Virus record (IMG/VR): IMGVR_UViG_3300042090_000890
Coordinates: 1-64,000 of that record
Source of the DNA: a virus
Direction: 5' to 3' (one strand)
DNA: 64,000 nucleotides
Made by a program: the position numbers and the translations under genes. The notes below the pieces were generated by a model that had not been told where the DNA came from, did no database searches, and was given only the letters and a program-made list of their open reading frames with translations. Position 1 is the stretch's first letter. Each line of letters begins with the position of its first letter. This document shows, piece by piece, positions 1-54,498 of the stretch.

Positions 1-165
1 GTCGTCACTGCGCCTGGCACTAGCACGACCCTAGTCTACGTCGGTGCAGGTTCTACCACCAGCCAGTTCATTCCGGCGAACGGTAACGCAACAGGTACGG
101 TGTTCGTGTCGGCAAGCATTACGCAGTTTGACTTCAGCATACCGATCACGAACTTCCAACCTTAA
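1..165 (+). CDS. 3' end of a Thr/Gly/Val-rich protein, possibly virion structural (partial)
   Basis: Frame 1 open from base 1 (VVTAPGTSTTLVYVGAGSTTSQFIPANGNATGTVFVSASITQFDFSIPITNFQP) to TAA 163-165; stop overlaps the convergent stop of the next gene. Confidence 0.55.
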   Translation, partial: VVTAPGTSTTLVYVGAGSTTSQFIPANGNATGTVFVSASITQFDFSIPITNFQP

Positions 166-341
166 TCGTCGATCTTGGCGAGTTCGGCTTCCAGCTTCTC
201 TTGCTCTTTGTTGAGCTGCAAGAATTTCTCTAAATGTTCAGTCTTGGCTACGCCGGTTGCCTCCCGCGCGAGCTTCAATGCATCAAGCTTTTGGTCTTGA
301 AGCTTGTCGATTTGAACTTCTAGGTCGTATATTTTACTCAC
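162..341 (-). CDS. small coiled-coil hypothetical protein
   Basis: Probable GTG start at 341 overlapping the upstream stop; heptad-like Leu/Glu/Lys content. Confidence 0.55.
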   Translation of the reverse strand: MSKIYDLEVQIDKLQDQKLDALKLAREATGVAKTEHLEKFLQLNKEQEKLEAELAKIDD

Positions 342-516
342 GCTTGGCGTCAACCTTCCGGAAGATGCGAGCCATGACCCAGATAGCCCATGCGTCTCCG
401 ACTGCATGGATCATGGTCAACTGCGGAGCTTCGCACGAAGTGTACAAGCCGACTGCGGCGGTCAGTAAAATACCGACCACGCATGCGAATTTAAGAAACT
501 TAGCTTCTGGTCCCAT
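334..516 (-). CDS. small membrane protein (2 hydrophobic segments)
   Basis: ATG 516 (MGPEAKF...) with upstream GAGG; two hydrophobic stretches. Confidence 0.5.
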   Translation of the reverse strand: MGPEAKFLKFACVVGILLTAAVGLYTSCEAPQLTMIHAVGDAWAIWVMARIFRKVDAKRE

Positions 517-802
517 TACGGCCTCGCGGAAAGAGCTGTGCGATTGCATACAACACTCGATCGAGTAGATTGTATCGTTTGAAACGCACAAAACCATTTA
601 AAACATATACCTGTTGGTAGTCTGCTTCGGTACCACCAGCGACTTTTTTAATCCTGCTGATGCGTACATTGAACTTGAAAGGTAACGCGCTGCCGAGCAG
701 ACCTTTGTCGGCCAACTCAATCTTCTGTGCTACTTCCAATCCCACTTTGCCCATCGGCAGTTTCGCTGACCGGTAATACTTCGGTCCGATTGTCACTTCC
801 AT
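500..802 (-). CDS. hypothetical protein
   Basis: ORF with GGAGG RBS in a tightly packed minus-strand operon. Confidence 0.55.
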   Translation of the reverse strand: MEVTIGPKYYRSAKLPMGKVGLEVAQKIELADKGLLGSALPFKFNVRISRIKKVAGGTEADYQQVYVLNGFVRFKRYNLLDRVLYAIAQLFPRGRNGTRS

Positions 803-38419: not shown

Positions 38420-38861
38420 GATTCTAGTATGGCAAGTGAAAAATAAAATCTTCCAAAAGTTGTATAAATTTTTGGTATGGGCTTTCGGCATGGAAAGCGA
38501 GATCATCGATGTGCTCAATCGAGCCAGAGGCGAGATCACTGGCCTCCGTGCCGACAAGGAAAAGCTGGAGAAACAGGTTGTACTGCACGACCGTGGCACT
38601 TCCCTCGACGTACGTTCGTCACTCGCGGCTATCGATCTCGATTCGCTCGGAGAGATCATTTGGATAACGGTCGGCGACGAGCGCATGCTTAGGGCTGACG
38701 TCTTCAATCAGATACGAGACTATTACAACACTCACGGAAAAGGTCACTCGATCTTGTTGGTCACTGGCCCGAACGTGACGTTCAAGTCTCTCACGGACGG
38801 AGATTTAGAAGAAGCTGGGCTTCGCCGACTTTCGAGGCTTGAGCGCATAGGCTTACGATGA
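38400..38861 (+). CDS. hypothetical protein
   Basis: GGAGG RBS, ATG 38400. Confidence 0.6.
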   Translation: MLSPKNRILVWQVKNKIFQKLYKFLVWAFGMESEIIDVLNRARGEITGLRADKEKLEKQVVLHDRGTSLDVRSSLAAIDLDSLGEIIWITVGDERMLRADVFNQIRDYYNTHGKGHSILLVTGPNVTFKSLTDGDLEEAGLRRLSRLERIGLR

Positions 38862-40765
38862 GTGTTTCCCGACCGGTCGATCCACATTTAGCTCAGACAT
38901 TTCTAAAGCGCTTCACGAGCCCGAAGCACGCTAAGACGTGGATTCACAATTTCCTCGATCTGGACTTCCCGGATTCGTGGGTAGACCCAGATTCGAATTC
39001 GAGTCCGGTGCATTGGCTATACGAAACGTACAAGATGTACGAGGCCAATATGGGCCACACGTCTCCGAGCACGATCGTGATTTCCTCGCGGGAGTCGTAC
39101 AAGACACTTTCAGAAGCGGCGTTCGCAATCATCATGATGGTCCAATTCGGCGCCTCGATCGCTCATATGGCCGCTATCGTACCGCAGGCGACCGCCGCGC
39201 AGAATTACATTTCCATGTTCATCGACAAGATCAAACCGTATCTGGAATACCACAAGATCGAGTTGGACTCGTCGAACGCAAAGGAAATCAGTTTAAAGCT
39301 GAATCCCGGCACGCCGGAAGAGAAACAGGCGTACATGAAGATCATCGTTTGCACCGTTACCGGCGCGAACAGTTCGCATACGAACATCTTCACGATCGAC
39401 GAGATCGATACGATCCGGTCTCGCGAGCAGCTGCGCGCCTACAAAGAAGCGGAGTACATTCCTGGAGTGTTCAACGGCCAGCATCCGGTTACGATCAAAA
39501 CATCGACATTGAAATTCCCTGGCGGACTATTTACCAAAGAGATGGAGAAGGCCCAGAAGTCCGGCCATCGCGTATTCCGGTGGAATATCATCGACATCAC
39601 TGAGAAGTGTCAATCGGCCCGACATCTGCCGGACAAGCCAAAGCAGTTCGTGTATGTTGCTCGCAGCCTGCCGCTTCGGACCATCACGGAAATCGAATAT
39701 GCGAATCTGATCGAAAAGGAAAAAGAAGGTTTCGACCGTGTCGAGGCGTACGAAGGTTGCCTCAAGTGTCCTCTTCTTCCGGTGTGCCGCACCCGTTTAG
39801 CGCACCGCTCCGAAAAGGATGTTGGCGGTTTGTGGAAGCCGATCGATTTTACAATCTCACAGTTCGACAAAGACCCGGACCTGGCCGAAGCTCAGCTGAT
39901 GTGCTGGAAGCCTTCGTCCGCTGGTATGGTTTATCCCCGATTCGTCGATCTCGCCGATGGGACCGGCAACACGTACAGTCTTAAGCAGGCGTGGGAAGTT
40001 TACACCGGAGAAAAAGCGCCGACAGGCCTCGTGTTCCCGCACCTGATCGAGTTCATGCTCAGCAAAGGTATTCGGTTCTATGCCGGTGTCGATTGGGGCA
40101 CCACACATGCCTTCGCGATTTCGGTGTCCGCCAAGATGCCAAATGGCGAATGGTGGTTGGTAGACGGATATTCCGTACCGCAGCTCGAATTCGCCCAGAT
40201 GATGGCGCTCGCGATAGAAGTCCGGGACATGTACCGCGTCGCGCAGTGGTTCGCGGATACATCGGAGCCGATGTTCATCAAAGAATTCAAGAACGCCCGC
40301 ATGCCATGCAAGAAGTTCACGAAGGATGTCTTCGGAGGCATCTCAGCTGTTCGCGGTCGGATTATCAACGCCCGCAACCGTCGGTTCTTGAAAGTCATCA
40401 AGCACGACCGAACTGAGCTGTTCATCAAGATGTTTGCGGAGCACTGCTTTAAACTGGATACCCTCGGCAATCTGACGAAGGACCCGGACGATGGTGAGTA
40501 CGCAGATATCGCTGACTCAGTGCGGTATCAAGCCCAGAACCTGTACAAGATTTCCAAGATCAATACTCCCCCGCCGCCGCAGCCGGTCAACCCGTTCGAA
40601 CAGTTCTTTGCACAGACTCCTACTCCGGAAAAGCACTTTCAGGATTGGCAGACCCAGAAAAGACAGGTTTTGGACGGCGGAGACACCTCCGCAGGTTTGA
40701 AGGGAAAGTCGGCTGACGGGAACGTTATATGGGACTTTGGCACCGAAGAGGGTGCCGATGATTAG
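38858..40765 (+). CDS. terminase large subunit
   Basis: Deviant Walker A SSRESYKT, Walker B FTIDE, TST motif, RNase H-like GVDWG...FAD...DIADSVRY; upstream of portal. Confidence 0.85.
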   Translation: MSVSRPVDPHLAQTFLKRFTSPKHAKTWIHNFLDLDFPDSWVDPDSNSSPVHWLYETYKMYEANMGHTSPSTIVISSRESYKTLSEAAFAIIMMVQFGASIAHMAAIVPQATAAQNYISMFIDKIKPYLEYHKIELDSSNAKEISLKLNPGTPEEKQAYMKIIVCTVTGANSSHTNIFTIDEIDTIRSREQLRAYKEAEYIPGVFNGQHPVTIKTSTLKFPGGLFTKEMEKAQKSGHRVFRWNIIDITEKCQSARHLPDKPKQFVYVARSLPLRTITEIEYANLIEKEKEGFDRVEAYEGCLKCPLLPVCRTRLAHRSEKDVGGLWKPIDFTISQFDKDPDLAEAQLMCWKPSSAGMVYPRFVDLADGTGNTYSLKQAWEVYTGEKAPTGLVFPHLIEFMLSKGIRFYAGVDWGTTHAFAISVSAKMPNGEWWLVDGYSVPQLEFAQMMALAIEVRDMYRVAQWFADTSEPMFIKEFKNARMPCKKFTKDVFGGISAVRGRIINARNRRFLKVIKHDRTELFIKMFAEHCFKLDTLGNLTKDPDDGEYADIADSVRYQAQNLYKISKINTPPPPQPVNPFEQFFAQTPTPEKHFQDWQTQKRQVLDGGDTSAGLKGKSADGNVIWDFGTEEGADD

Positions 40766-40812: not shown

Positions 40813-42447
40813 ATGCACCAGAATTCAAATGATTGCCCGGACAGTATACTGAACATGATGGTCAGTATGCTTTGCTACCAGGACGGCCAAGTTACCGACA
40901 ATCCGCACCAGCGTGCGTTCGATTATCGGCTCCGCCTTGAAAGCATCGGATGTAAGAACCCGTACGGCAACGAAGTCCTGATAGGCCCCGGCCAGTCGTT
41001 CTCGCTATTTTCCAGCGTCATTGCTACCGGGCTGACCGGCAGCTCGATCGTGAACATGGACCCGCAATCGCCGCCGGAGTCGATTTACCGGTTGTCGGTA
41101 TCATCCGGCACGACGAATAATTTCCGCACCGGTCGCACGGTGTCTGATCTCGCAGGTTGCACGGTCACGGTCAACAACAACGCCGTCGCCGTATTCCAAT
41201 TCACTGGAGCTAACTACACGAATAACAACCAGAATTTCTCGGCCAATGCTGCAATCGTAGCCGGTACGACATTGATCGCAACCGGCACGGGCGCGCCAGC
41301 TTTCAACGCGTATCAGATGACAACTGCACCGGCAAATGCTACGGCAGGCGCCGTATACCAAGATGCTCTGAACACCAATCAGCGATATACCGTCGAGCAG
41401 ACGGTCTCAGGCGGTACGACCTTGATTGCTTCCGGCCCGACACCGCCCGAATCGACTTTTGCGATCACGTGCAGCCCGGCATCAGCATCCGCAGGCGCGG
41501 TTTACCAGCTGAACGGCCATCATTACCACGTCACCACCACGATTACAGGCGGTGCGTTGCTTACGGCTACTGGCTACACACAGCCGCCTGCGTCCGGCGT
41601 TTTGACGTATGTGTCCGGTACCGGTGACCCGACGATCACATATTCCTCGTTTACGCTCTCAGGCTCTCTGACACTTTTTTCTGGTACCGGCGATGGAACG
41701 ATTACGTATTCAGGATACGTCCCGGTCGGATTGCTGACTCTCGACAGCGGCGTGGGCGATTCTTTGATCATTTACACGTCTGTCACGGCTGTCGGAAATC
41801 AGTACACGTTCACGGTTAACCCGGCGAATGCTTCCGTTCCGAACATCAGTACGGTGCAGGTCGGCGACATTATGCGCATCAACGGCCAGATGGGTTATGA
41901 TACTCCGCCTTATGCGTTTAATCCAATAAATTCAGGCAGTTGGATCATCATCGCTGTCTCCGGAACCACAGTCCAAGCGGTTCGTCCGGCGGGAACAGCG
42001 TTCCAAGCCGTCCAAGAAACACCTCCCGGCCCAACCGTCAACGATGTGATGTTCTACGCGAACGACAAGGTCATGCCCGGTATGATGTTCCAGATTACCG
42101 GCACATTCAGCCCAGTCACCCAGCGCACATACACCGTCCTTGATTCCACTCCGAACTTCATCCAGTTCTGTTCGACGCAGCCGATTCCTAAAGAGGACGG
42201 ACTGACTTTTGTGCCAGGCACTGCAACTTTTTATACAGGCGTCAAGAAAATGGTGTATGTTGAGGTTGATCAGCCATGCGCGGCCCAGTTCAATGGACAG
42301 GTCGACGTGCTGAACATGATCACACCGATCAAGCCAGGCTCAAGAAATTTGAGAGGCTTTTTAACAAAGATGGGCGAAACGTACAGCTGTACGGTCGTCA
42401 ACACTTCGGTGAATCAGGCGCACGTTAAGTTTTTTACAGTCGAGTAA
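40813..42447 (+). CDS. virion structural protein with nested Thr/Gly-rich beta repeats
   Basis: Position in head module; three interleaved copies of an AGAVY...GGTTL...SGTGD.TITY unit. Confidence 0.65.
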   Translation: MHQNSNDCPDSILNMMVSMLCYQDGQVTDNPHQRAFDYRLRLESIGCKNPYGNEVLIGPGQSFSLFSSVIATGLTGSSIVNMDPQSPPESIYRLSVSSGTTNNFRTGRTVSDLAGCTVTVNNNAVAVFQFTGANYTNNNQNFSANAAIVAGTTLIATGTGAPAFNAYQMTTAPANATAGAVYQDALNTNQRYTVEQTVSGGTTLIASGPTPPESTFAITCSPASASAGAVYQLNGHHYHVTTTITGGALLTATGYTQPPASGVLTYVSGTGDPTITYSSFTLSGSLTLFSGTGDGTITYSGYVPVGLLTLDSGVGDSLIIYTSVTAVGNQYTFTVNPANASVPNISTVQVGDIMRINGQMGYDTPPYAFNPINSGSWIIIAVSGTTVQAVRPAGTAFQAVQETPPGPTVNDVMFYANDKVMPGMMFQITGTFSPVTQRTYTVLDSTPNFIQFCSTQPIPKEDGLTFVPGTATFYTGVKKMVYVEVDQPCAAQFNGQVDVLNMITPIKPGSRNLRGFLTKMGETYSCTVVNTSVNQAHVKFFTVE

Positions 42448-42455
42448 GGTGACGA

Positions 42456-44654
42456 ATGGCCAACGAAGAAGGCAAGAAAAAGCGGTACCAACAGAGACAA
42501 GAAATTGTCGCGTTGGACCCCAACGCTTTGAAGTTACTCAAAGCGGAAGCTGACGCTCGCCAGAAATCCAACGATGAAGAAGAAGTCACTCCGGCGGATA
42601 CCGGCGTGTTGGGCGAGATCGTAAAATCGATCAAAGCTCAGAACGCGATGCAGGCGGCCCAACTGGAGCGAATGTCGTTCCAGGTCGACCCGAACGCGAA
42701 CTACTCCGGCGCTCTCGGTTTTTACAAGCTCAAGCAGAACTTAACTCCTGATCATATCATCAAACGGATCTGCGGTCCGGGCGGCGACGAACTCGTTAAC
42801 GAGATTCTCCAAGCTCGCTCGAATCACATCTCGTCCTTCGGTCGGCCACGTACCGATCGTTTCAGTGTAGGCTTTGAATTCCAAGACATGGACAAGAACG
42901 CCAAGCGTTCGGAAGAAGATCAGCGGAAGATCCAAGAAATGATCGATGCCGCTAAGAAGACCTTCTGGCAATGCGGTCGCGGTACGCTCGAAGGCGAACT
43001 CGACCAAGTAAACCTGTCTCAATTCTTAAAGCTGGTGACCCGCGATGGACTTGGATTCGGACGCCTAGCTACTGAAAGAGTTTGGTGGACCAATCCAAAA
43101 ACTGGCAAGAAAGAGCTGTACGCATGGCGCGCAGCCGATGCCGGAACAATGCTCAAGATTCTGCCGCAGAAAGAGCACGATCAATCTCTCCGCCAAGAAG
43201 CTATTCGTCAGTTGCAACAGATCAAAAACAAAAAGATCGACATCGAGAAGTACAAGAAAGATGAGTACCGCTACGTTCAGGTTATCGAAGGTAAACCTAT
43301 TCAGACATTCACTGAAGAGGAAATGGTCATCTACAATTTGTATCCGACGACCGGCATCGAATACAACGGTTACCCCCTGACCCCGATCGATCAAGCCCTT
43401 AACGCAATCACGACTCACATCAACATCACGGTCCATAACAAACTGTACTTTCAGCACGGTCGCGCATCCAAAGGGATGTTGGTATTCCAGTCGGATTCTA
43501 TGGACGAGGCAGCTGCCCAGCGCATTCGCCTACAGTTCCATCAGTCTATCAACTCCGTCCAGAACTCGTGGCGCATGCCGGTGTTCGCGATCGGGTCTGA
43601 GGACAAACTGACTTGGGAAGCAATCGACAACTCAGGCCGCGATGCAGAGTTCCAATACCTCATGGACAACAATGCTCGGGTGATCTTGTCGGCGTTCCAG
43701 ATGTCGCCGGAAGAATTGCCGGGTTACGCCCACCTCGCTCGCGGAACGAACACGCAGGCTCTCTCGGAATCTGACAATGAATGGAAGCTCACCGCAGCCC
43801 GCGACGTTGGTTTACGTCCTCTGCTAAGCGACATTCAAGATTTCTTGAACACGCACATTCTCCCGTTCGTCGACGCGGAACTCGCGAAGACGCACCAGAT
43901 CGTGTTAACTGGTCTCGACAAGGATTCTCCGGAAAAAGAGAATACCCGCCTGCAGCAAGATATGGCCGTTCACATGAACTACAACGAAGTCATGGAACAG
44001 GTCGAGAAGAACCCGATCCCGGTCGAACTGGGCGGCGACTTCCCTCTCAATCCTCAGTACCAAGCAGTCGCGGATAAGTACCTCACGGTCGGCCAGATCC
44101 TGGAGAATTTCTTCAAGGTCAAAGGCGCCGCATCCGATCCTCGTTATCAGTACATCCGTGATCCGTTCTGGTTCCAGAACAAACAGCTCATCCTCCAGGA
44201 AGCTCAGATCGCGATGCAGCAGTCCATGCAAGCTCAACAGATGATGCAACAGCAAGCGCTGGCCGAGCAAGGTATCGCGACCGATGAGAACGGCAACCCC
44301 GTTCAGCCCGGTGACGATGACGACAAAGGCGGCGGAGATGACTCCGGCGGAGACGATGATTCGGGCGGAGACGACTCCGGCGGCGGAGATCAGCCTCCGG
44401 AACAGACATCCAAGGCGGAGAAAGCGATCGACATCGTGAAAGAAATCACTGCCAAGAACGTGGCCTGGTCGGCGAACAACTACGTCGTCCTCGAAAAGGC
44501 CATCCGCAACAATCACAACAGAATCTCGCGACAGCTCCTGAAGCGTCACAATGAACTTGTGACGGCCACGATGGATAACTGGAAGCGCCAGTCCGCGAAG
44601 GAACTGGCAGCCATGGGCAAAGCGCTCAAAGACGGTAAGAAGAAGGGGAGCTGA
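42456..44654 (+). CDS. portal protein
   Basis: Position between TerL and MuF; YNGYPLTP, NKLYFQHG..SKGML, ILSAFQMSPEEL, GLRPLL pattern. Confidence 0.85.
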   Translation: MANEEGKKKRYQQRQEIVALDPNALKLLKAEADARQKSNDEEEVTPADTGVLGEIVKSIKAQNAMQAAQLERMSFQVDPNANYSGALGFYKLKQNLTPDHIIKRICGPGGDELVNEILQARSNHISSFGRPRTDRFSVGFEFQDMDKNAKRSEEDQRKIQEMIDAAKKTFWQCGRGTLEGELDQVNLSQFLKLVTRDGLGFGRLATERVWWTNPKTGKKELYAWRAADAGTMLKILPQKEHDQSLRQEAIRQLQQIKNKKIDIEKYKKDEYRYVQVIEGKPIQTFTEEEMVIYNLYPTTGIEYNGYPLTPIDQALNAITTHINITVHNKLYFQHGRASKGMLVFQSDSMDEAAAQRIRLQFHQSINSVQNSWRMPVFAIGSEDKLTWEAIDNSGRDAEFQYLMDNNARVILSAFQMSPEELPGYAHLARGTNTQALSESDNEWKLTAARDVGLRPLLSDIQDFLNTHILPFVDAELAKTHQIVLTGLDKDSPEKENTRLQQDMAVHMNYNEVMEQVEKNPIPVELGGDFPLNPQYQAVADKYLTVGQILENFFKVKGAASDPRYQYIRDPFWFQNKQLILQEAQIAMQQSMQAQQMMQQQALAEQGIATDENGNPVQPGDDDDKGGGDDSGGDDDSGGDDSGGGDQPPEQTSKAEKAIDIVKEITAKNVAWSANNYVVLEKAIRNNHNRISRQLLKRHNELVTATMDNWKRQSAKELAAMGKALKDGKKKGS
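44311..44390 (+). repeat. Gly/Asp/Ser coding repeat in portal C-terminus
   Basis: GDDDDKGGGDDSGGDDDSGGDDSGGGD. Confidence 0.7.
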
Positions 44655-45535
44655 TGAAGCTCACCGACGCCCAGCGGAATGTCATCATCGAACGCATTGA
44701 GTCTCTCTTCGAGGGGACCAAAGCGCGCCTGTTAGGGTCGATGTTCAAAGGCCCGAAGCTATACTTCGAAGTCGTCCGTCGGTCGGACCCTCTGCATACT
44801 ATCGAAGGCTTGTACAATTTCACGCTGAAGACCATGTACGGCGCGACTGCCGAGCCGAACAAGAAAAATATCGAACATCTAGCTGAAATAACTGGGAATT
44901 ATATGGATTCCCAGCAGCTGAAGATCAAGAATCACATCTTGGCGGACGTGGCCAAGGCTAAAACGCCGTCAGAAGCGATCCGCTCGATACGCGGTCACTT
45001 CGAGCAGGCCGGGAAGTACGTCGATCTGCTAGTATCGAACGAAACCCGCATCGTTCAGACGTACGCCTCGCGCGAAGGTATCGGCAAACTGGCGTCGGAC
45101 ATCGGAGTGAAAGACCCGACCGTCGTATTCCTAGGCGTTTGCGACCATAAAATCTGTAAGTATTGCAAGAGCATGTACCACGACTCTGCGGCGATCCGCA
45201 AGCCGAAGCCGTATAAGCTGTCTCAGGTACAGGAAGGGTATTTCAAGCCGAAGGATTGGGACGGGAAGACGCCGCACCAGGCTCCGCTACATCCGCGTTG
45301 CCGACACGTAATGAGCTTCGTGCCGCCGAACTTCGGGTTCAACGACGCAGGCGTGATCGAGTTCAAGGAATTCGGCTACGATTACCACAAAGAGTACTGG
45401 AAGCTGAAGAAAGCCGAGGAACTGCCGCCTGACTCAACACCCATGGCGAGTTTCCTGAGTTACGACGAGTACTTGGAGATGAATATCATCCACGAAGCTG
45501 AACATCTACACGATGAGTTCTGCACGCACGATTAG
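44654..45535 (+). CDS. MuF/SPP1 gp7-like head morphogenesis protein
   Basis: NETR...D.KICKYC...APLHPRCRH; follows portal. Confidence 0.8.
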   Translation: MKLTDAQRNVIIERIESLFEGTKARLLGSMFKGPKLYFEVVRRSDPLHTIEGLYNFTLKTMYGATAEPNKKNIEHLAEITGNYMDSQQLKIKNHILADVAKAKTPSEAIRSIRGHFEQAGKYVDLLVSNETRIVQTYASREGIGKLASDIGVKDPTVVFLGVCDHKICKYCKSMYHDSAAIRKPKPYKLSQVQEGYFKPKDWDGKTPHQAPLHPRCRHVMSFVPPNFGFNDAGVIEFKEFGYDYHKEYWKLKKAEELPPDSTPMASFLSYDEYLEMNIIHEAEHLHDEFCTHD

Positions 45536-45561: not shown

Positions 45562-47310
45562 TTGGTGGTCACTTTGGGTCTGAAGATTGACGGTATCGCG
45601 ACATCTGAACACATTGATTCGTCCGGTGAATTGCTCATCGTCGAGAATCATGACATCTCCGATCTTGTGTCGGGCAAAGGCGTCATGAATTGGGAGCACT
45701 CCAATAAGTCCGATGACACGATTGGAGCAATCATCTACGCCAAGAAAATTCTCAAGAAGACCGACTGCGAGAACGACCGCCAGCGAAAATACTGGAATAC
45801 CGTCAACAAGCCGTTCGTTTACATCATAGGCGAGCTGTACGATGACGAGGAACATTCAGGTGCGCTTGCCGTCGCCGCCATGATCCGGTACTACGCCAAG
45901 AAATCTGAGAATCTCCTGACAGGCTTCTCCATCGAAGGCGCCACGCTCGAACGGGATGATTATATCCTGAAAGAGTCTGTCGGTCGCCGGGTAGCCGTCA
46001 CCCTCCGCCCGTGCAATAAGACTGCAATCGCTGGGTTGCTGGAAGATCCAAAAACGAAAGATATCGCTAAGTCGATCGAGGCAATGATGGCCCGCGTCGA
46101 TGGCAGCCTCGTCGAAATCGACTCGGTCATCCTCGACGATATGTTCATGCCGAAGGACCCGATTCTCGACCTACATAAGGCCGTCGAAAGTCTCGCGAAG
46201 TCGATCGAAGCGGGCATGTACAATGTCACTCCGTCGCAGTTGATCGGCCAAGCCGCACTTACCCGCGAGCACATCAGCGGATTCCAGCGGAACCGTGTTA
46301 AAGCTGCCGTCCGCGATTGGGACCGCAAACGTCCTCTCAAGGAAGTTCTGAAGAGCGCTCTACCGGAAGTGTCTGACGATTACATCGGACATTTCGAGAA
46401 GTTGGCCGAAGAATTGGCACTCAAGAAAAACATGCCATCCACGAAATTAACTCGCGTTGGGGCTAGACATTCGCCAAATCAACATCAAAATGAAGACCAA
46501 CAGAAGTTGATCGAAGGCTTGTACTTCGACCCGAAGAGAAAGTTCGGCGGTAAAGATTTTGATCCTGGCCACACCGGCTATCAAACCGCGATCACGAAGC
46601 ATAAAAATGACGCAGGCGCGAACGTGTTGGTCAAACAGCCCACGGGCAAATGGGCAGAGAACGCCACTCATTACTACGAGAACGCTCGCGATGTTTTTGG
46701 AATGGGCAATCACGTACCGGTTACGAATTATTTCAAGCCGCCCAAAGGATCTCAGAAATGGGATATGACTACCGATACTACGGATCGTCAGCCTGAAGGC
46801 CTGCATCATCAAGCGATGGAACTTGTCGATAAAGCCAAATCGCCAATGACCATGAACGACAAAGACCTGGCTAAACCGTTGCAAAGAGCATATGATAACG
46901 GAGACTTGAACAAACTCATGATGATGGATCAGATTCTAGGCGGAGCGTCGGATAGACACCACGGAAACTATCTGATTCATCCTAAAGGCCACGTTATGAA
47001 CATCGACAACGATCAGGCTTTTTCTTACAATATACCGGCTCCGACACCGGCGTACATGTATCAGCACATCGATCAGCCGATACACCCGGAAGCGTCAAAA
47101 TGGATAAAAGGAATTGATCCAAAAGCGTTGATCGGGAAGATGGCGGACCAAGGTCGTTCACCGGAAGAAATAAAATCCGCCGCTATGATTCTTAAACTGC
47201 ATCAGAAATACGCCGACAAGCCTATGACAGGACGCCAACTGTGGGACACTATAGGCAATCATGCTACGGCAGTTCGTCGTGAAGAGCAGCGCAAGAAGAA
47301 GGTAGCATGA
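45562..47310 (+). CDS. prohead protease fused to an MCP-N-terminus-like segment and a PI3/PI4K-HipA-like kinase domain
   Basis: Protease: GIATSEHIDSSGE, NWEH, GFSIEG, VAVTLRPCN; kinase: VLVK, DRHHGN, NIDN. Confidence 0.8.
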   Translation: MVVTLGLKIDGIATSEHIDSSGELLIVENHDISDLVSGKGVMNWEHSNKSDDTIGAIIYAKKILKKTDCENDRQRKYWNTVNKPFVYIIGELYDDEEHSGALAVAAMIRYYAKKSENLLTGFSIEGATLERDDYILKESVGRRVAVTLRPCNKTAIAGLLEDPKTKDIAKSIEAMMARVDGSLVEIDSVILDDMFMPKDPILDLHKAVESLAKSIEAGMYNVTPSQLIGQAALTREHISGFQRNRVKAAVRDWDRKRPLKEVLKSALPEVSDDYIGHFEKLAEELALKKNMPSTKLTRVGARHSPNQHQNEDQQKLIEGLYFDPKRKFGGKDFDPGHTGYQTAITKHKNDAGANVLVKQPTGKWAENATHYYENARDVFGMGNHVPVTNYFKPPKGSQKWDMTTDTTDRQPEGLHHQAMELVDKAKSPMTMNDKDLAKPLQRAYDNGDLNKLMMMDQILGGASDRHHGNYLIHPKGHVMNIDNDQAFSYNIPAPTPAYMYQHIDQPIHPEASKWIKGIDPKALIGKMADQGRSPEEIKSAAMILKLHQKYADKPMTGRQLWDTIGNHATAVRREEQRKKKVA

Positions 47311-47912
47311 AAGTCTACGTAATCAAATCAGATCATTCCGAAGTGCCGTTAGCCGAAGTCCGCACGGACGGCGATACGGCCCACTTCGTAGTCGACAATA
47401 CAAACGGAAAACTGCCCCAGATGGTCCAGAGCAGTCTGCCAAAATTACGTGCGATTTGCGACAATTCTTCGCATATGCACATGGAAGAGCCGAAAACAGC
47501 GACCGTCAATCTTCTGCGGTACGTTATGGACAACGGTGATGTGGTCGAGATTACGTCGGACGGCCATACCGTCATGCTCAACGGACACCTCCTGCCGCAA
47601 GAAGAGAAGGATGCGTTGTTCAACGCCTTTACGCGTGGCGAAATCAAAGTCGCTCGTAAGACCGATGTACAGCAGGCATTGCCGGTCCTCCCGTCGAATC
47701 CGCCGTCGGAGTACGCTAAGCCGCAGAGCAAGATGAATCCGACAGTGCTTGGCATGATAGAAGATGACCAAGACAAAAAAGATACCGCCCGTGAGATGGC
47801 CACTCGCGACTATGATCCGGCCATTGACGATGCCGAGCTGTCTGATGTAGAAGATGCTGATTGGACGAAAGAATTGATGCGCTGGCTCAAATACGGTGAC
47901 AAAAATGAATGA
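47307..47912 (+). CDS. hypothetical head-module protein
   Basis: ATGA overlap. Confidence 0.65.
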   Translation: MKVYVIKSDHSEVPLAEVRTDGDTAHFVVDNTNGKLPQMVQSSLPKLRAICDNSSHMHMEEPKTATVNLLRYVMDNGDVVEITSDGHTVMLNGHLLPQEEKDALFNAFTRGEIKVARKTDVQQALPVLPSNPPSEYAKPQSKMNPTVLGMIEDDQDKKDTAREMATRDYDPAIDDAELSDVEDADWTKELMRWLKYGDKNE

Positions 47913-50900
47913 CGAAAAGAAATTAGCACCAGACGTACCGGCTGACACACTCCACGCTCACGTGGAGCGCCATATGGCATTACCGGAAGAGTCTCAGTCA
48001 GACAATGACAACGAAGACTTCGCGGCTGAAGTCGCCTCGCATCCGAACCTTGCGCCGCATTCCATTGAGAAGCTGTACAACCACGTGATGAAGCCTGTAT
48101 CTGCCAATTCTACGACGGCGGCCACTGGCGAAGCAGAGCCGATGTCGAATGTGATCGTCGGTAATCTGCTTAGAAATCCTAACGCACCGCAGAATATCAA
48201 ACAGGACTTTGCGCTCAAGACGTTTCATCCCGACAATCCGTCGTCCGATCTGCACGAAGAGTTGGCTGATTCCGGCATTCTGAACGAACAGCAATTGAAA
48301 GGCATGTCCGAGCAGGTTTTGAAAGCTGGCAAAGAGCCACACGCATACAAGCACCTTGGCCCGAATTACTACATGAAGTATTTTCGAGGCCGGTCGCAGC
48401 AGGACCCCAACGAACTCGACGAGGACGGGAAGGAACAGCATTCTCGCGAGATGGAGCTGGGAGAAAAAGGGTTAGTTAACTCGTCTAGGCACACGCCGGA
48501 GACATTGGATCAGACGATCGACGCGTTTTCGGCTTCGAAACATGACCCGCACGGCCTTATCGAAAAATTGGTTAACAATAGAGAAGACTTGTCTAAAGAC
48601 CAATTGAATAAGATCCATCAATGGTATGATTCCAACAAAAATGAAAAGAGCAACGCCTACAACGACGACTATTATCATAGGCAGCGCATCGATAGCTTGC
48701 TAGAGCATAAGAATGTCGATCCAGCGTTGCTTGCCAAATATGCTGTAGGCAAACGGGTCAGCACAGAAGCTCTCAAAAATCCACGCCTGCCGCAGGAATC
48801 GATCAACGGTATCATAAAACGTATAAAAGATCCCAACGAATGGGACACTCGGAACAGGGTAGAAAGTCTTCTCGAAAATCCGTCTATATCGAAAGACCAG
48901 GTTCGCGCATTGATTCAGAAGGGTTCCAATAAAGCCATCAAGCATCCTCTGGCCGACGAAGCCGCTGTCCGCGACTATTGGCAGAAAGGTTCAAAGGACC
49001 TAGACTCATCCCGCGATATCTTGCAAGCGAAGAATTTACCGCCAGACGTGTTAAAAGAGCTTGTCAATCACAAGAATCAGGAAGTCGCCGTCAAAGCTCT
49101 CAACCATCCCAGAGCGGACATGGACGTGGTCAACGAAGGTCTCAAACGCCGGGCAAAGACCGTACAGGATGCCGCACGGCTACATCCGCTTGTAGCCGAG
49201 CAACAGGTCAAAGAAGGTTTGAAATCGGGCGCGACATCTCTCGCGAACGTGTACACAGATCCGAAATTCGAAGCGCAGTTCGACAAGCTCCCGAAGGTGG
49301 ACCAGGAAGCGATCTTCAATAAGGCACACGAGAAGTACCAAGGTACCAACCTCGCCGAGTTGGCCAAGAAGACCAAGGAACGTTCTGAAAACGTCATCAA
49401 CAGCAAGATGAACCTGGCCATGGACGAGCGCGTCCCGGCAGCCATCCGCGAAGCGCATGGTAAAGACATTGCCAATATGTTCGAGGATCAGGTCCCGAAG
49501 AATCAGATGCTGGTCCAACGCACGACCGACGTGATGAGCAAAAATCACCCGGACGACAATTCTCGTCTGGTGACGGCCATTTCACATCTTGCGATCAACG
49601 GCAACAAAGATGCCCAGAGAGCGATTCTCAATAATCCTGGCTATCTCTCGGAAGTTCAATCCAATCTGGACTTGAAAGACGCCGAACCAGATTTCCTGGA
49701 AAGCGTATATCGCAAAAGACAGGAGAATCAGGCCAATAACGTACAACTGTACGATCGCGTCGGACACCCGGAATTGTTCGATAAATCCGGCCACACGCTC
49801 AGACGTGTTTTCGAAGCTCCCAACTTGCCGTCTAATGTGTTCGACGAGATTGCTCGGAACGGACAACAGATGGACCAGATCGGTGCCGGAGACTATTTCA
49901 AAAGATACAATGATCTGCCTGAAGACCAACAGAATCAGAAATACGAGCACATTCTAAATTCCGGTTCGCAAAAGGCAGCCATTTCAGTCGTCCGCGCTAA
50001 AGCGCCTCCGGCATCTTGGGACCGTGCATTCAACATGCTGACCCCAGACAATAAGCAACGTCTGATCAAAGACGAAGTCGATCACGTGAAAAGTCATAGG
50101 CCGGACGTTTTCCACAATGCCGTGCTGGGCATGTACAATGATCCGGCAGACGCAGATCGTCCTGGCATGAGCAGATACGAGAGCTATCAAGCGAAAGCCG
50201 TTAGCAAATTAGATCCGGAATCGCCGAATGACCGCTCGGTACTTGAACAGCTGATCTCAATCCCAGAGGCTCAGCCAGGGCATATGCCAGACGAAGGATT
50301 GCTGGATAATATCCCAGAGAAAATGTACAGCAAGCCCGGTGACGATTCTCTGATTGACCATGCAGCAGCTTCCGGTAAAGGTCCTCTGGCATACAATATG
50401 CTTGCCCGGAAGATGAACACTCTCAGTCGTGAGGCGTACGTCGGCAGTTACGAATCGGAAGATAAGAAAGCAGCAGCCAGACAGAAAGCTGAAGACCTTG
50501 TTACTTACTTGCACGGACGTGTTGCGTCGATGCCATCTTTCAGCGACGCGGATACAGATAATCCGACCGCCGAGAATTGGTACTCACTGATGACTCGTCA
50601 GAAGCAAGGGTACCACGACGATCGGTTCATGGGAGCTTTGAAAAAAGCAGGTGCGAACCTCGATTTCTTGGCCGACATGCCCGGCAAGGACGGCGAACTC
50701 GTAAAACGCCAGGCGCTCACGGACAACCTTCTGTCTACGCAGAAGCTGCAAGAAATGTCGCAGGCCAATTCTGTGAAAGATATTCTGGCCATCGGCAGTC
50801 CAAAGTTACGTCAGCAATCTTTGGATTCTTGGGTCGTCCAAGGAAATCATACGCCCGAAGATTTAGAACACCTTGCCAACAAAGTTGACGCATCGGTGCT

Positions 50901-53900
50901 CAATCCGGAGTCGTTCGAACACGGTCGCCGTAAGTCCATGGGCGAAGAGGCTGTCAACGTATTTAATTCCCGCATCAACAACTTGATAGACTTGTACAGG
51001 ACAAAGAGTCCAGACAGTCTCACGCATGTGATCAACAATGCTCTGCAAGTCAGCCGCTCTGACGACGATCTCACCCAAGAAGATGGCCGCCGCATCGTAA
51101 AAAATATCTTGAATCACGTCAACGGCGCAGCATACGGTTCGCCGGAAGAGAAAGCGTCCACGCTCCTGAGCACGTACATGGCTCTCAAAAAACGAGAGAT
51201 GGCGCCCGCCAATATGGGCAAGCAAATAGAGCGTGCTGCCGTAGAAGGTAAAGACTACGACACGATGATTAAGCTGTCGGATCACAAGATGCTTTCCGAA
51301 GAGGGCATAAGCTCTTTGATGAAAGCCGCCGCGCAGCCACAGACGCTCAATTCGCGCCAGATCGCAGGCGTATCCTCGATGCTCACTTCGAATACTCCGC
51401 CTAGCGCTGTACTTGACACCGCCAAGGCCTTCGAGAACAAAACGGCGCAGGAAGTGGCCGAAGGTAAACGCCCTTCGCCCGCCGACCGAACGAAGTTGAT
51501 GAGGAATCTGTTCGGCACGTTCAGCCCCAGTGAGTCCGGCCCGGAAGAAGTTCAGAAGAACGAGTTTTTAGTCAACTACATGAAAAAACAAGCGCTGGAC
51601 CCGGCAGTCTCCAGATACGCCAATACGCATTTGGCAAACATGTCTGTGCAGTTGGCAGAAGCTGGCGACGAAGATCAAGGCATCAGTCTATGGGAACAAT
51701 TGCCGAATCAGTTGACAGATTTCGACGGCAACTATCCTGACATACAAGGTGCTATCCCGTCAAAAATGCTCAACGACCCTCGTTTCATTGAGGCCTGCGG
51801 ATCGGGATGGAAACTTTCGTCCCTGGCCATAAACGCCGATAGGCTCACAGGTGCGAATGCCTCTACCCTCACGAATCGTGCGTTGGCCGCCGAGCCATAC
51901 ACTGTTGACCACCAGCAGTTGTTCCGAAATTTTGAAAATAACGAGTTCGTGGCACCAGAAGATTCTGTCAAGTTGGCGCGCAGCATGCCCGATGACAAGT
52001 TCAATTCTCTCACTCGCGAGCTTGGCCAGTCCATGGCAGGCAATCTGATATATGCTGCCCATGCCAGGATTAGAGATGTCGACGCGCTTGTAAAAGATCC
52101 GAATCTGGCTGCCCCGAACGCGCCGTTTATGGGAGCTGAACACCGCAACAAGATTCTGACAAATCTTGATGCATATGCCACTGCCATCAAAAACGCTGAT
52201 GTTGAAGAAGAAACGCCGAATTTGAAGGACAAACTTGGCAAAGTGTCCGAAATGATTGGTACGATCCACGGCCACTTGAAGACGATCGCCAATCATATGC
52301 GTTTGCAGGCGCCAGACCAGGTAGACAATATTGAATTTGCTAGGGATCACGCCGCGATGCTGACTACGCTCAGTAAAATCGCTACCACTAATCTGCAATT
52401 AGACCGCGACGATGCACTCAAAGTTATGGATATGGTAAAAGAATACCACTCTGTTCAGCAGGCAGCCGGTAAAGAACCTATGCCAGAGAAGACGTATCCT
52501 GCCACAAAGGGCCTCGTCGCCCGCGCCGAAAATTTCGAGGAGCAGGATTGGCGGGAAATGTTCAAGGCCGACCCACACGCAATTTACGCGCTGAGCGACC
52601 GAGCCACTATCCCTACTGAAGCCTTGAACGCCGCCGAGATCACCAAGATCGAAAAGTCTCGCAACAAAGACGAGAATCGAGCCAAGACCTTGTTCGTTAA
52701 GACGTCCAAGGATTGGTTCTCGAAGATGTCGAAGGAAGACGTTGCTCACCACGGCAAGGATCTTCTGCATCTGTACATCAAGCTGAAAAATGCCGATGAA
52801 ATCTTCCATAACGATTACACGTATGCGATGGAAGAGGGCATGAAGTACATGGGCGACAGTATGTCGCACAAGGAACTAACCGATCTTCTACAAGAGTCCG
52901 GCGCTTCTGACTTGCGAAACTCGTTGTTCAAGACTGCCGTCGAAAACGGTGTGGGCGGCGTAGAAAGTTTGAAAGCGTACGCCAAAGAATTCCACGACCA
53001 GATATTCTCAGGTCATTCAGATATACATGACATGGAAGCGTCGAATTTGAAGATGAAGTTAGAGCCAATCACAGCATCGCCGTACATAGATGAGGATCTC
53101 GCAGGACAAGTGTTCGATATGTACGATAGGAATAAGGGCGCCATGCACGCAGCCGCAGTTGACCTATTGGCTAATACATCAACTCCAGCGAAATCCGTGA
53201 AAAAGTTCACCGACACATTACTCCAAAATCATAAAGACGGATACAAGGACATTAATAAGAGAGCCTCTGCGAATCTGGCAAGTCAGATTATGCAGCATCC
53301 GAATGTGTCCGAGGAAGACCTTGGCGAACTTTTCGCTCTCAGCAACGAGCAGTTCCCGAAATACTTCGCTCCGTCTGGGAAGTTCAACCCGGCGCTAACG
53401 AATCCGACGTACGGCGGCAAGCTGTTCCGAGCCATGCCATTGGCTCTTCCGGAATCTCAAAAGATGGGTCCGAAAGGTGAAGGCGGTACGGTAGATGAAG
53501 GAAAGTGCCTCCGGGACATTAACTTGCAGCACAAGGATTACGAGCGCATGAAGTCGACCATGGCCATGATACCTGCCGAGGGTATGGCCTGGGCCGAGTT
53601 CAAGCGCAAGTTCCCGGCAGAAGAAAAATCTCTGCCGCCTTCCGTCAAAGCTGTGTTCACGTCAGCTCAGAACAAACCGGTCATGCCTGAGCAATTCGCG
53701 CAAGCTATGCGTTCGCTGGATGATAATTCCAAGAAGTACCACCTGACGTATTCGGAATGGGGATCTGGCCTGCAGCGTCATAACCCTCCTGGCCGCCCGA
53801 ACTTGGTTGTTCAAGTAAACAATTCCGAGGCTTCCGAGAAGGAACTTTCGCAGGACCCTAAACTTTGGTCGTTGTACCAGCATCTACTCCAACAAACGAA

Positions 53901-54498
53901 CGGCATTTCGAATGGTTCGATCGGCATGCATCCGACTACCCCGCACATGGTTTCCTGGTCGCGCGTCGACACTGATCAGCAGACGAAAGGTAAGAACGCA
54001 TGGGCGATCGAAGAGTACCAATCTGACTTTGCTCAGAAGTTCCGCCGCAACTTGAAAGCTCTGGCCAGCAAGTTCCCGTCCGGAACGAAGCTGAGCGGCC
54101 AGCATGTAACCGCCGAGGACATGAAAAAGTACGCGAAGACGATCGACAATCACCTTTCGGACTGGACGGAAGCATCCATGCAGGCGGTGATCGACAACGC
54201 GAAGGCGCAAGGCGTCACGCATTTGTACATGCACGGTGCCGAGATGCGCGGGTACATGTCGAACGGCGGGCGCTACAGCCGCGAGTTCTGGGATAATCCG
54301 AACACCAAACCGTTCACGGTTGGGTTCCGGAAGATTTACGGCGAAAATCCTGCAAAATTTGGCTTCAAGGAATGCGACTATACGGATTACCCGAAGCATA
54401 ACAAGGACATGCTCAACAATTTGAAGAAAAACAAGCTGTCCACGAAGTGCTGGGTTCTTGAGCTGCAGCCTCCGGCGCCCAAGAAGAAAAAAGCCTAA
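47896..54498 (+). CDS. giant (2200 aa) helical-repeat protein, probable internal head/ejection protein
   Basis: Many [NH]P-x-x-P helical repeats; distinct C-terminal alpha/beta domain; head-module position. Confidence 0.7.
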   Translation: MTKMNDEKKLAPDVPADTLHAHVERHMALPEESQSDNDNEDFAAEVASHPNLAPHSIEKLYNHVMKPVSANSTTAATGEAEPMSNVIVGNLLRNPNAPQNIKQDFALKTFHPDNPSSDLHEELADSGILNEQQLKGMSEQVLKAGKEPHAYKHLGPNYYMKYFRGRSQQDPNELDEDGKEQHSREMELGEKGLVNSSRHTPETLDQTIDAFSASKHDPHGLIEKLVNNREDLSKDQLNKIHQWYDSNKNEKSNAYNDDYYHRQRIDSLLEHKNVDPALLAKYAVGKRVSTEALKNPRLPQESINGIIKRIKDPNEWDTRNRVESLLENPSISKDQVRALIQKGSNKAIKHPLADEAAVRDYWQKGSKDLDSSRDILQAKNLPPDVLKELVNHKNQEVAVKALNHPRADMDVVNEGLKRRAKTVQDAARLHPLVAEQQVKEGLKSGATSLANVYTDPKFEAQFDKLPKVDQEAIFNKAHEKYQGTNLAELAKKTKERSENVINSKMNLAMDERVPAAIREAHGKDIANMFEDQVPKNQMLVQRTTDVMSKNHPDDNSRLVTAISHLAINGNKDAQRAILNNPGYLSEVQSNLDLKDAEPDFLESVYRKRQENQANNVQLYDRVGHPELFDKSGHTLRRVFEAPNLPSNVFDEIARNGQQMDQIGAGDYFKRYNDLPEDQQNQKYEHILNSGSQKAAISVVRAKAPPASWDRAFNMLTPDNKQRLIKDEVDHVKSHRPDVFHNAVLGMYNDPADADRPGMSRYESYQAKAVSKLDPESPNDRSVLEQLISIPEAQPGHMPDEGLLDNIPEKMYSKPGDDSLIDHAAASGKGPLAYNMLARKMNTLSREAYVGSYESEDKKAAARQKAEDLVTYLHGRVASMPSFSDADTDNPTAENWYSLMTRQKQGYHDDRFMGALKKAGANLDFLADMPGKDGELVKRQALTDNLLSTQKLQEMSQANSVKDILAIGSPKLRQQSLDSWVVQGNHTPEDLEHLANKVDASVLNPESFEHGRRKSMGEEAVNVFNSRINNLIDLYRTKSPDSLTHVINNALQVSRSDDDLTQEDGRRIVKNILNHVNGAAYGSPEEKASTLLSTYMALKKREMAPANMGKQIERAAVEGKDYDTMIKLSDHKMLSEEGISSLMKAAAQPQTLNSRQIAGVSSMLTSNTPPSAVLDTAKAFENKTAQEVAEGKRPSPADRTKLMRNLFGTFSPSESGPEEVQKNEFLVNYMKKQALDPAVSRYANTHLANMSVQLAEAGDEDQGISLWEQLPNQLTDFDGNYPDIQGAIPSKMLNDPRFIEACGSGWKLSSLAINADRLTGANASTLTNRALAAEPYTVDHQQLFRNFENNEFVAPEDSVKLARSMPDDKFNSLTRELGQSMAGNLIYAAHARIRDVDALVKDPNLAAPNAPFMGAEHRNKILTNLDAYATAIKNADVEEETPNLKDKLGKVSEMIGTIHGHLKTIANHMRLQAPDQVDNIEFARDHAAMLTTLSKIATTNLQLDRDDALKVMDMVKEYHSVQQAAGKEPMPEKTYPATKGLVARAENFEEQDWREMFKADPHAIYALSDRATIPTEALNAAEITKIEKSRNKDENRAKTLFVKTSKDWFSKMSKEDVAHHGKDLLHLYIKLKNADEIFHNDYTYAMEEGMKYMGDSMSHKELTDLLQESGASDLRNSLFKTAVENGVGGVESLKAYAKEFHDQIFSGHSDIHDMEASNLKMKLEPITASPYIDEDLAGQVFDMYDRNKGAMHAAAVDLLANTSTPAKSVKKFTDTLLQNHKDGYKDINKRASANLASQIMQHPNVSEEDLGELFALSNEQFPKYFAPSGKFNPALTNPTYGGKLFRAMPLALPESQKMGPKGEGGTVDEGKCLRDINLQHKDYERMKSTMAMIPAEGMAWAEFKRKFPAEEKSLPPSVKAVFTSAQNKPVMPEQFAQAMRSLDDNSKKYHLTYSEWGSGLQRHNPPGRPNLVVQVNNSEASEKELSQDPKLWSLYQHLLQQTNGISNGSIGMHPTTPHMVSWSRVDTDQQTKGKNAWAIEEYQSDFAQKFRRNLKALASKFPSGTKLSGQHVTAEDMKKYAKTIDNHLSDWTEASMQAVIDNAKAQGVTHLYMHGAEMRGYMSNGGRYSREFWDNPNTKPFTVGFRKIYGENPAKFGFKECDYTDYPKHNKDMLNNLKKNKLSTKCWVLELQPPAPKKKKA

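Follow-up and report, generated by a model that had tools for sequence, protein, structure and literature searches.

A phage head-module protein with a lineage-specific insert probably built from one small beta-barrel nested three deep within itself

To our knowledge, self-nested domain insertion has been documented in detail for essentially one system, Si3 of RNA polymerase. In the beta' subunit (RpoC2) of the cyanobacterial enzyme, Si3 is made of recursively inserted sandwich-barrel hybrid motifs (SBHM) (10.1101/2024.01.11.575193), and a 2026 survey finds six nesting levels in it (PMC13114784). In phages, small and mobile beta domains occur in variable number on exposed virion proteins; T4 Hoc is described as three variable Ig-like domains in a string on a capsid-binding domain (PMC10385173).

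In this study, we describe a viral protein, P0001, with a 209-aa insert in which a module of ~65 aa, here called NC after its 43-residue first half (N) and its 21-residue hairpin second half (C), appears to be nested three deep. We put the probability of this nested architecture at roughly 75–80%. As in Si3, a small beta domain family would be self-inserted within a loop of a host protein, with domains built from distant parts of the chain, and in both systems the accretion is lineage-specific. Unlike Si3, the P0001 unit is a six-stranded barrel unrelated to SBHM in sequence and without a clear link to it in fold, its host is a phage head-module protein and not a polymerase, the nesting is strictly linear and shallower (three levels against six), the outer unit is circularly permuted, and the NC module has nested independently elsewhere, in unrelated proteins as well as at a second loop. 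The likeness to decorating domains such as those of T4 Hoc lies in the small, mobile beta domains and their variable number, the place of P0001 in the virion being our reading of its context. Hoc-type arrays run head-to-tail at a terminus, whereas the P0001 copies would be nested within an internal loop, so that the chain must return to the host protein. Self-nesting is thus a rare architecture that is already described for cyanobacterial RNA polymerase, and this locus presents the Si3-type grammar in a different fold and biological setting. It is easy to test, with three levels in 209 residues, a permuted outer copy and natural controls in the form of insert-free relatives, tandem arrays of the module and independent nestings, including one at a different loop. 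It also brings out a common phage module named by no family database, and offers a convenient system to study how domains tolerate splitting and how surface projections of phages are extended from internal loops.

The P0001 gene lies in a window of 64,000 nucleotides, the whole stretch of DNA analyzed (positions 1 to 64,000 of IMG/VR record IMGVR_UViG_3300042090_000890), within a 97.9-kb contig. It is surrounded by head genes.

38858..40765, + strand: large terminase (phrog_5653, phrog_2)
40813..42447, + strand: whole P0001 gene, 544 aa, a conserved ~326-aa core plus the 209-aa insert
42456..44654, + strand: portal protein (PF04860, phrog_15361)
44654..45535, + strand: minor head (MuF-like) protein (weak phrog_115 / phrog_4728 matches)

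The start at 40813 is supported by the conservation of the first 14 residues in P0003. The initial annotation had placed the gene between those of the terminase (TerL) and the portal, which agrees with the profile matches of both neighbors, and this order is kept in 12 of 12 related loci, including Myxococcus phage Mx1. The MuF-like gene comes next in 11 of the 12, the other locus (L090) stopping before the MuF position. Mx1 is a cultured phage with a contractile long tail (PMC10720576); a literature search found no proteomics or structure for WNM70315.1, its homolog of P0001. As one part of an overall explanation that we hold to be probable, P0001 belongs to the head module of Mx1-like phages with contractile tails, in which it is a conserved protein.

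Relatives of the P0001 core form 379 clusters (E up to 0.001), mostly of 320–330 aa and typically of ~326 aa. Their alignment puts the break points of the insert at residues 133–137 and 339–351, between the conserved FxFxGA (to residue 133) and TLxxVQVGDIMRING (residue 343 on). Of 11 viral-contig relatives, 10 lack the insert, as does phage Mx1, and in the alignment of core relatives it is common only to P0001, P0003/L001 and the fragment P0004; P0003/L001 is 72% identical to P0001 overall and 60% within the insert. The parts of the gene, with units assigned according to the nested reading, are given below.

40813..41211, + strand: core, N-terminal part, residues 1–133, ending in the conserved FxFxGA (alignment; AF2 pLDDT > 90); its end, 41203..41211, overlaps N1
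41212..41838, + strand: lineage-specific insert, putatively three self-nested barrel units, residues 134–342, 209 aa
41203..41298, + strand: N1, strands 2–4 of the outer unit, residues 131–162, HMM positions 12–43 only
41308..41442, + strand: N2, strands 1–4 of the middle unit, residues 166–210
41452..41586, + strand: N3, strands 1–4 of the inner unit, residues 214–258
41590..41652, + strand: C3, hairpin of the inner unit, residues 260–280, contiguous with N3 as a canonical unit
41659..41715, + strand: C2, hairpin closing the middle unit, residues 283–301
41728..41793, + strand: C1, hairpin closing the outer unit, residues 306–327
41797..41832, + strand: displaced strand 1 of the outer unit, residues 329–340, YTFTVNPANASV
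41839..42447, + strand: core, C-terminal part, residues 343–544, beginning (N)ISTVQVGDIMRING

Three first halves followed by three second halves had been noticed at 41206–41838. The peptides quoted for them are present in the ORF, the range matches the insert, and profile HMMs return the same order, N1-N2-N3-C3-C2-C1, followed by the strand 1 that N1 lacks. The HMMs for the N half (43 positions) and the C half (21) were built from eight insert-only matches with P0001 left out, and they match P0001 with i-E values of 2.8e-07, 8.5e-13 and 2.2e-10 (N) and 1e-10, 3.1e-06 and 3.7e-04 (C). In a six-frame scan of the whole contig, matches were confined to the P0001 ORF, so that the unit occurs in these 97.9 kb only there. 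Self-diagonals scored with BLOSUM62 in 12-residue windows reached 50, 48 and 38 against a shuffle maximum of 37 (mean 29, 50 shuffles), which indicates that the repeats are real. Since the N halves follow one another without an intervening C half, the insert is not an ordinary head-to-tail tandem array, as had been said of it from the start. In the DNA of the insert no inverted repeats were found and the direct ones, which lie 147–162 nt apart and join N half to N half only, are weak, so that the arrangement is not an assembly artefact.

An origin of the insert from duplicated host strands was considered and rejected, the N HMM matching no core-only relative. The host segment TVNNNAVAVFQ before the insert weakly resembles ANATAGAVYQ of the module (63% over 32 nt), with the DNA similarity running from 41167–41198 to 41329–41360 and 41476–41507. 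This resemblance may be due to chance, or to microhomology used when the insert was acquired.

The module consensus reads YTFTVTAANATAGATYTNNGQTFTV..TI.GGTTL...GTG.P in the N half, followed directly by ASGTLTK.SGTGDATITFSSF in the C half. The contiguous N3-C3 (214–280) can be aligned gap-free with 63 canonical units of viral-contig origin, and in the insert-only matches (P0027-P0034, P0151, P0179) N and C motifs are adjacent, often in tandem units. With a two-unit query and 8000 candidates scored, at least 782 protein clusters carry the module, and many of these are phage proteins of the tail, the baseplate, the sheath or head closure. Scans of P0001, P0030, P0027 and P0005 found no model for the module itself in Pfam, PHROGs, NCBIfam or PDB sequences. 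Named families are matched by seven of ten carriers scanned, the remaining three (P0230, P0214, P0260) belonging to families of unknown function or to none. These carrier families comprise Gp10_C baseplate/tail, Mtd_N tail fibre, head closure Hc3 (phrog_578), tail sheath (phrog_205), DUF2612 and Lcl_C, in which the mobile module is a fusion or an insertion, and Ice_binding; in the sheath and head-closure proteins, single canonical NC units sit inside loops.

When both HMMs were applied to 136 proteins and 80 reading frames of viral contigs, the census gave the following arrangements.

NC: 104 proteins, 71 viral-contig frames
NCNC: 16 proteins, 7 viral-contig frames
NCNCNC: 4 proteins, 1 viral-contig frame
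NCNCNCNC: 2 proteins, 0 viral-contig frames
NNNCCC: 3 proteins (P0001, P0002, P0003), 1 viral-contig frame (L001)
P0151: NNCC, then NC
P0031, residues 20–235: N(NC)(NC)C, two tandem NC units within one outer unit, read as branched nesting
P0184, residues 160–305: an NC unit in the C-hairpin turn of another unit, SGVLNRVS[unit]TGAGDASIAYSS

Every whole carrier or frame examined is bracket-balanced, five of them only by eye: in P0184, P0200, P0217 and P0276 the imbalance is only apparent because one half is merely divergent, and in P0031 a third unit missed by the HMMs was recognized on reading the sequence. The sole other exception, P0004, is a truncated fragment, and neither N-only nor C-only arrays were found in the 136 proteins and 80 frames. 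Balanced brackets are predicted by nesting and not by independent arrays, and the census therefore supports nesting. The proposal that the domain was repeatedly inserted into the same Pro loop holds for P0001, where both inner insertions are in the GTGxP/xxSG loop between strand 4 and the C hairpin. It does not extend to a rule for the family, as P0184 uses the C-hairpin turn; to judge from these sequences, the module can accept a copy of itself at more than one site, since the two loops differ.

One could instead see in the insert two independent tandem arrays, the case that the initial annotation had named as contrary to nesting. The N halves would form a string of four-stranded units and the hairpins one six-stranded sheet. 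Along the sequence the N halves and the C halves do each form a run of similar pieces, and the direct DNA repeats fall within the N run. However, N and C counts would have no reason to be equal in all whole proteins and frames read, an arrangement such as N(NC)(NC)C or an NC unit inside a hairpin turn would be meaningless, and the single strand-1 piece of 12 residues that follows C1 would be left unexplained. Together with the structure model described below, these points make separate arrays extremely unlikely.

A full-length AF2 model with 76 core homologs gave pLDDT > 90 for the core and 30–55 for the insert, and could not decide between these readings. When the insert was aligned by MAFFT with 134 full-length carriers, unrelated residues came to lie under N1, N2, C2 and C1, and the alignment was discarded. 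A second AF2 model, of residues 115–352, used 63 non-redundant canonical units aligned on N3-C3 together with the ortholog, P0004 and P0031. It reached a mean pLDDT of 86.3 and a pTM of 0.76, with 157 of 238 residues at pLDDT ≥ 90 and a mean pLDDT ≥ 82 in four of five models; because the two outer units have only 2–3 alignment rows, confidence in them rests on the network's learning. DSSP assigns six strands to each unit, namely strands 1 and 4, both long, two short strands between them, and the hairpin. The hairpin strands are fused end to end into two continuous 17-residue strands, 274–290 (C3b+C2a) and 296–312 (C2b+C1a), and C1b turns straight into the displaced strand 1 (330–335). In the model, this layout is a staircase and not the six-strand meander of a separate hairpin sheet.

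The pairing of N with C halves was deduced from DSSP and from the first and last residues aligned by VIA, taken as a proxy for contacts. EF-Tu domain 2, a contiguous barrel of ~78 residues, and its relatives align 62–65 model residues at rmsd 2.8–3.2 Å over the model range 24..229, and N1 (25 aa) together with C1 and strand 1 (40 aa) amounts to 65 aa; N1 and the displaced strand thus appear to share one compact domain in the model. The aIF2-gamma and Ski7 barrels align 70–76 residues over 50..189/190, which corresponds to N2..C2. Such compact barrels spanning 24..229 and 50..190 are not what separate arrays would give. The model favors three stacked barrels with an out-and-back chain. The census, the confident model and the discontinuous alignments are thus consistent in pointing to one domain nested three deep along the chain path that the initial annotation had foreseen. 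It had further supposed a telescoping stalk, which is not supported, the two continuous 17-residue strands that run between barrels in the model suggesting a rigid rod rather than an extending one.

The unit matches have VIA Z scores of 3.6–6.1 over 62–88 aligned residues, which is the tool's "common arrangement" range, and the unit is therefore taken as a generic small six-stranded barrel without assignable relatives. EF-Tu domain 2, PilZ and the baseplate J / Mu gp47-like wedge barrels resemble it in size and strand number; among the VIA matches, the wedge proteins from the baseplates of phages Pa193, E217, Mu and XM1 reach 8–17% identity. There is no sequence relationship between any of these small barrels and the NC unit, and nothing suggests a common function.

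The outer copy had also been described as circularly permuted, and the details bear this out. N1 covers HMM positions 12–43 and the tail (329–340, YTFTVNPANASV) positions 1–11, the latter with 4.8 bits, too short for significance alone. When joined, YTFTVNPANASV+GANYTNNNQNF compares with the consensus YTFTVTAANATAGATYTNNGQTF, and tail and N1 together complete exactly one N half, neither overlapping nor leaving positions out. The permutation point lies in ANATAG, the loop joining strands 1 and 2, where the conserved GA of the host coincides with the GA of the module. The displaced piece is conserved in P0003 and P0004, and the model shows it as a strand (pLDDT about 90) that forms a hairpin with C1b. 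We consider it probable that the outer unit is a circular permutant, and the simplest origin for it would be an out-of-phase one-unit slice of a tandem array.

The weak resemblance of the host segment to the strand 1 - loop - strand 2 region of the module, with a diagonal score of 29 besides the 63% over 32 nt, allows another assignment, in which the host strand before the insert (CTVTVNNNAVAVFQF) is strand 1 of the outer unit and the trailing YTFTVNPANASV is the leftover of a decayed fourth unit. This assignment is very unlikely. The host segment is conserved as core in all insert-free relatives and its diagonal score equals the shuffle mean, whereas the trailing piece shows the conservation, the predicted pairing to C1b and the exact complementarity to N1 described above, and the alignments of PDB barrels reach model residue 229.

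Intertwined trimers are common among phage fibres and spikes. It is conceivable that the sequence is nested and that the halves are swapped between subunits, each N half pairing with the hairpin of a neighbor in an interdigitated fibre. The presence of the module in tail-fibre and baseplate proteins would suit such an exchange, and the AF2 model, being of a monomer, is compatible with it. We nevertheless regard it as unlikely, in view of the confident monomer model (pTM 0.76) and of the N-to-C linker of only about 4 residues in canonical units; the single NC units in the loops of sheath and head-closure proteins are also read more simply as self-contained domains.

Nesting within one chain would arise as follows. 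In the branch comprising this phage and its closest relative, the loop after FxFxGA (residue 133) would have gained the 209-aa insert, three copies of the six-stranded barrel of ~65 aa in other than tandem order. The contiguous N3-C3 would sit in the strand 4/hairpin loop of the middle unit (N2...C2), and the outer unit (N1...C1) would hold the middle one in the corresponding loop. Being permuted, the outer unit would join the core through its own strand 1/strand 2 loop, and for this reason its strand 1 would come last in the sequence. With such nesting the chain would go out via the three first halves and return via the three hairpins. The second strand of each hairpin would run on into the first strand of the next, so joining the barrels in a rod that stands out from the core; at its tip would be the canonical N3-C3 unit, which has the best-conserved hairpin (C3).

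With regard to the core, the model has a jelly-roll made of N- and C-terminal strands (model range 48..544 in VIA). Its Z scores of 10.2 to 6e5c, a designed double-stranded beta-helix, 9.3 to Ena3A and 8.0 to the HFTV1 turret and STIV A223 are all near the tool's background for models without a clear match; the alignments cover about 72–81 residues at rmsd 2.1–2.2. The predicted jelly-roll fold is therefore taken as likely and a relationship as possible. The viral turret, spike and cement proteins HFTV1 turret (8qpg), STIV A223 (6bo3) and PM2 P1 (2vve) and the Ena subunits of spore appendages share the jelly-roll with the P0001 core only, over one ~80-residue domain of the 326-aa core, and there is no sequence similarity. 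Foldseek returned nothing at E up to 0.001 for the core model against the PDB, and no usable match for the core and insert models against BFVD. The core has no significant profile match in Pfam, PHROG, NCBIfam or PDB sequences, and the PDB profile searches with the core and the module reached E values of only 0.29 and 0.77. The ESM Atlas gave a single 0.77 feature match, to an unnamed viral cluster.

Four loops, located after core positions ~75, ~102–109, ~125 and ~185, bear unrelated inserts in other core relatives (P0177, P0160, P0040, P0038, P0010/P0013, P0012/P0014, P0119, P0148), which is the behavior of an exposed display scaffold. The foreign inserts differ in kind: that of P0177 has ~380 aa resembling, by eye only, Kelch repeats, those of P0010 and P0013 contain repeats of LNxxYFLISSxTVxYYVWFNVGGxGxDP, and a ~90-aa module is common to P0038 and P0040, at two different core loops.

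Synteny, the jelly-roll core and the company kept by the module suggest that P0001 is a virion protein. By analogy with other phage decorating domains, the rod would stand outside the particle and might serve display or weak adhesion. That P0001 is an exposed display scaffold in the head/neck region, with the rod as a projecting and probably adhesive element, seems to us about an even chance; this functional reading is based on the head-module position, the jelly-roll core, a divergence faster than that of the neighbors, the four insert-accepting loops and the carriers of the module. More speculatively, and in our view rather doubtful, the NC barrel might be a widespread and so far undescribed phage building block with its termini and at least three loops as junctions, so that self-insertion could produce rigid out-and-back rods of adjustable length on any surface loop. 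The depth of nesting would then set the reach of the tip, and the permuted outer unit would be an adaptor providing a loop-compatible base.

Between P0001 and its ortholog (L001/L082) synonymous sites are saturated (dS about 1.6–2.3), and dN is 0.35 in the insert (where dS is about 2.3) against 0.12–0.20 in the core. All six halves and the displaced strand are kept in the ortholog despite the saturated dS, and C3 is the best-conserved piece of the insert, with 76% identity. From these comparisons the insert appears to be under constraint, looser than that of the core. When the window is compared with L082, the P0001 protein is 72% identical, and TerL, portal and MuF are 92, 88 and 86% identical, respectively; the P0001 gene is a fast-evolving member of an otherwise conserved head block. 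Further along, a 582-aa ORF at 45562–47310 matches head maturation protease (phrog_1028) in residues 9–155 only, its other ~430 aa being unassigned, and the capsid region is separated from this protease-containing gene by a 2200-aa ORF (47896–54498) within the head module.
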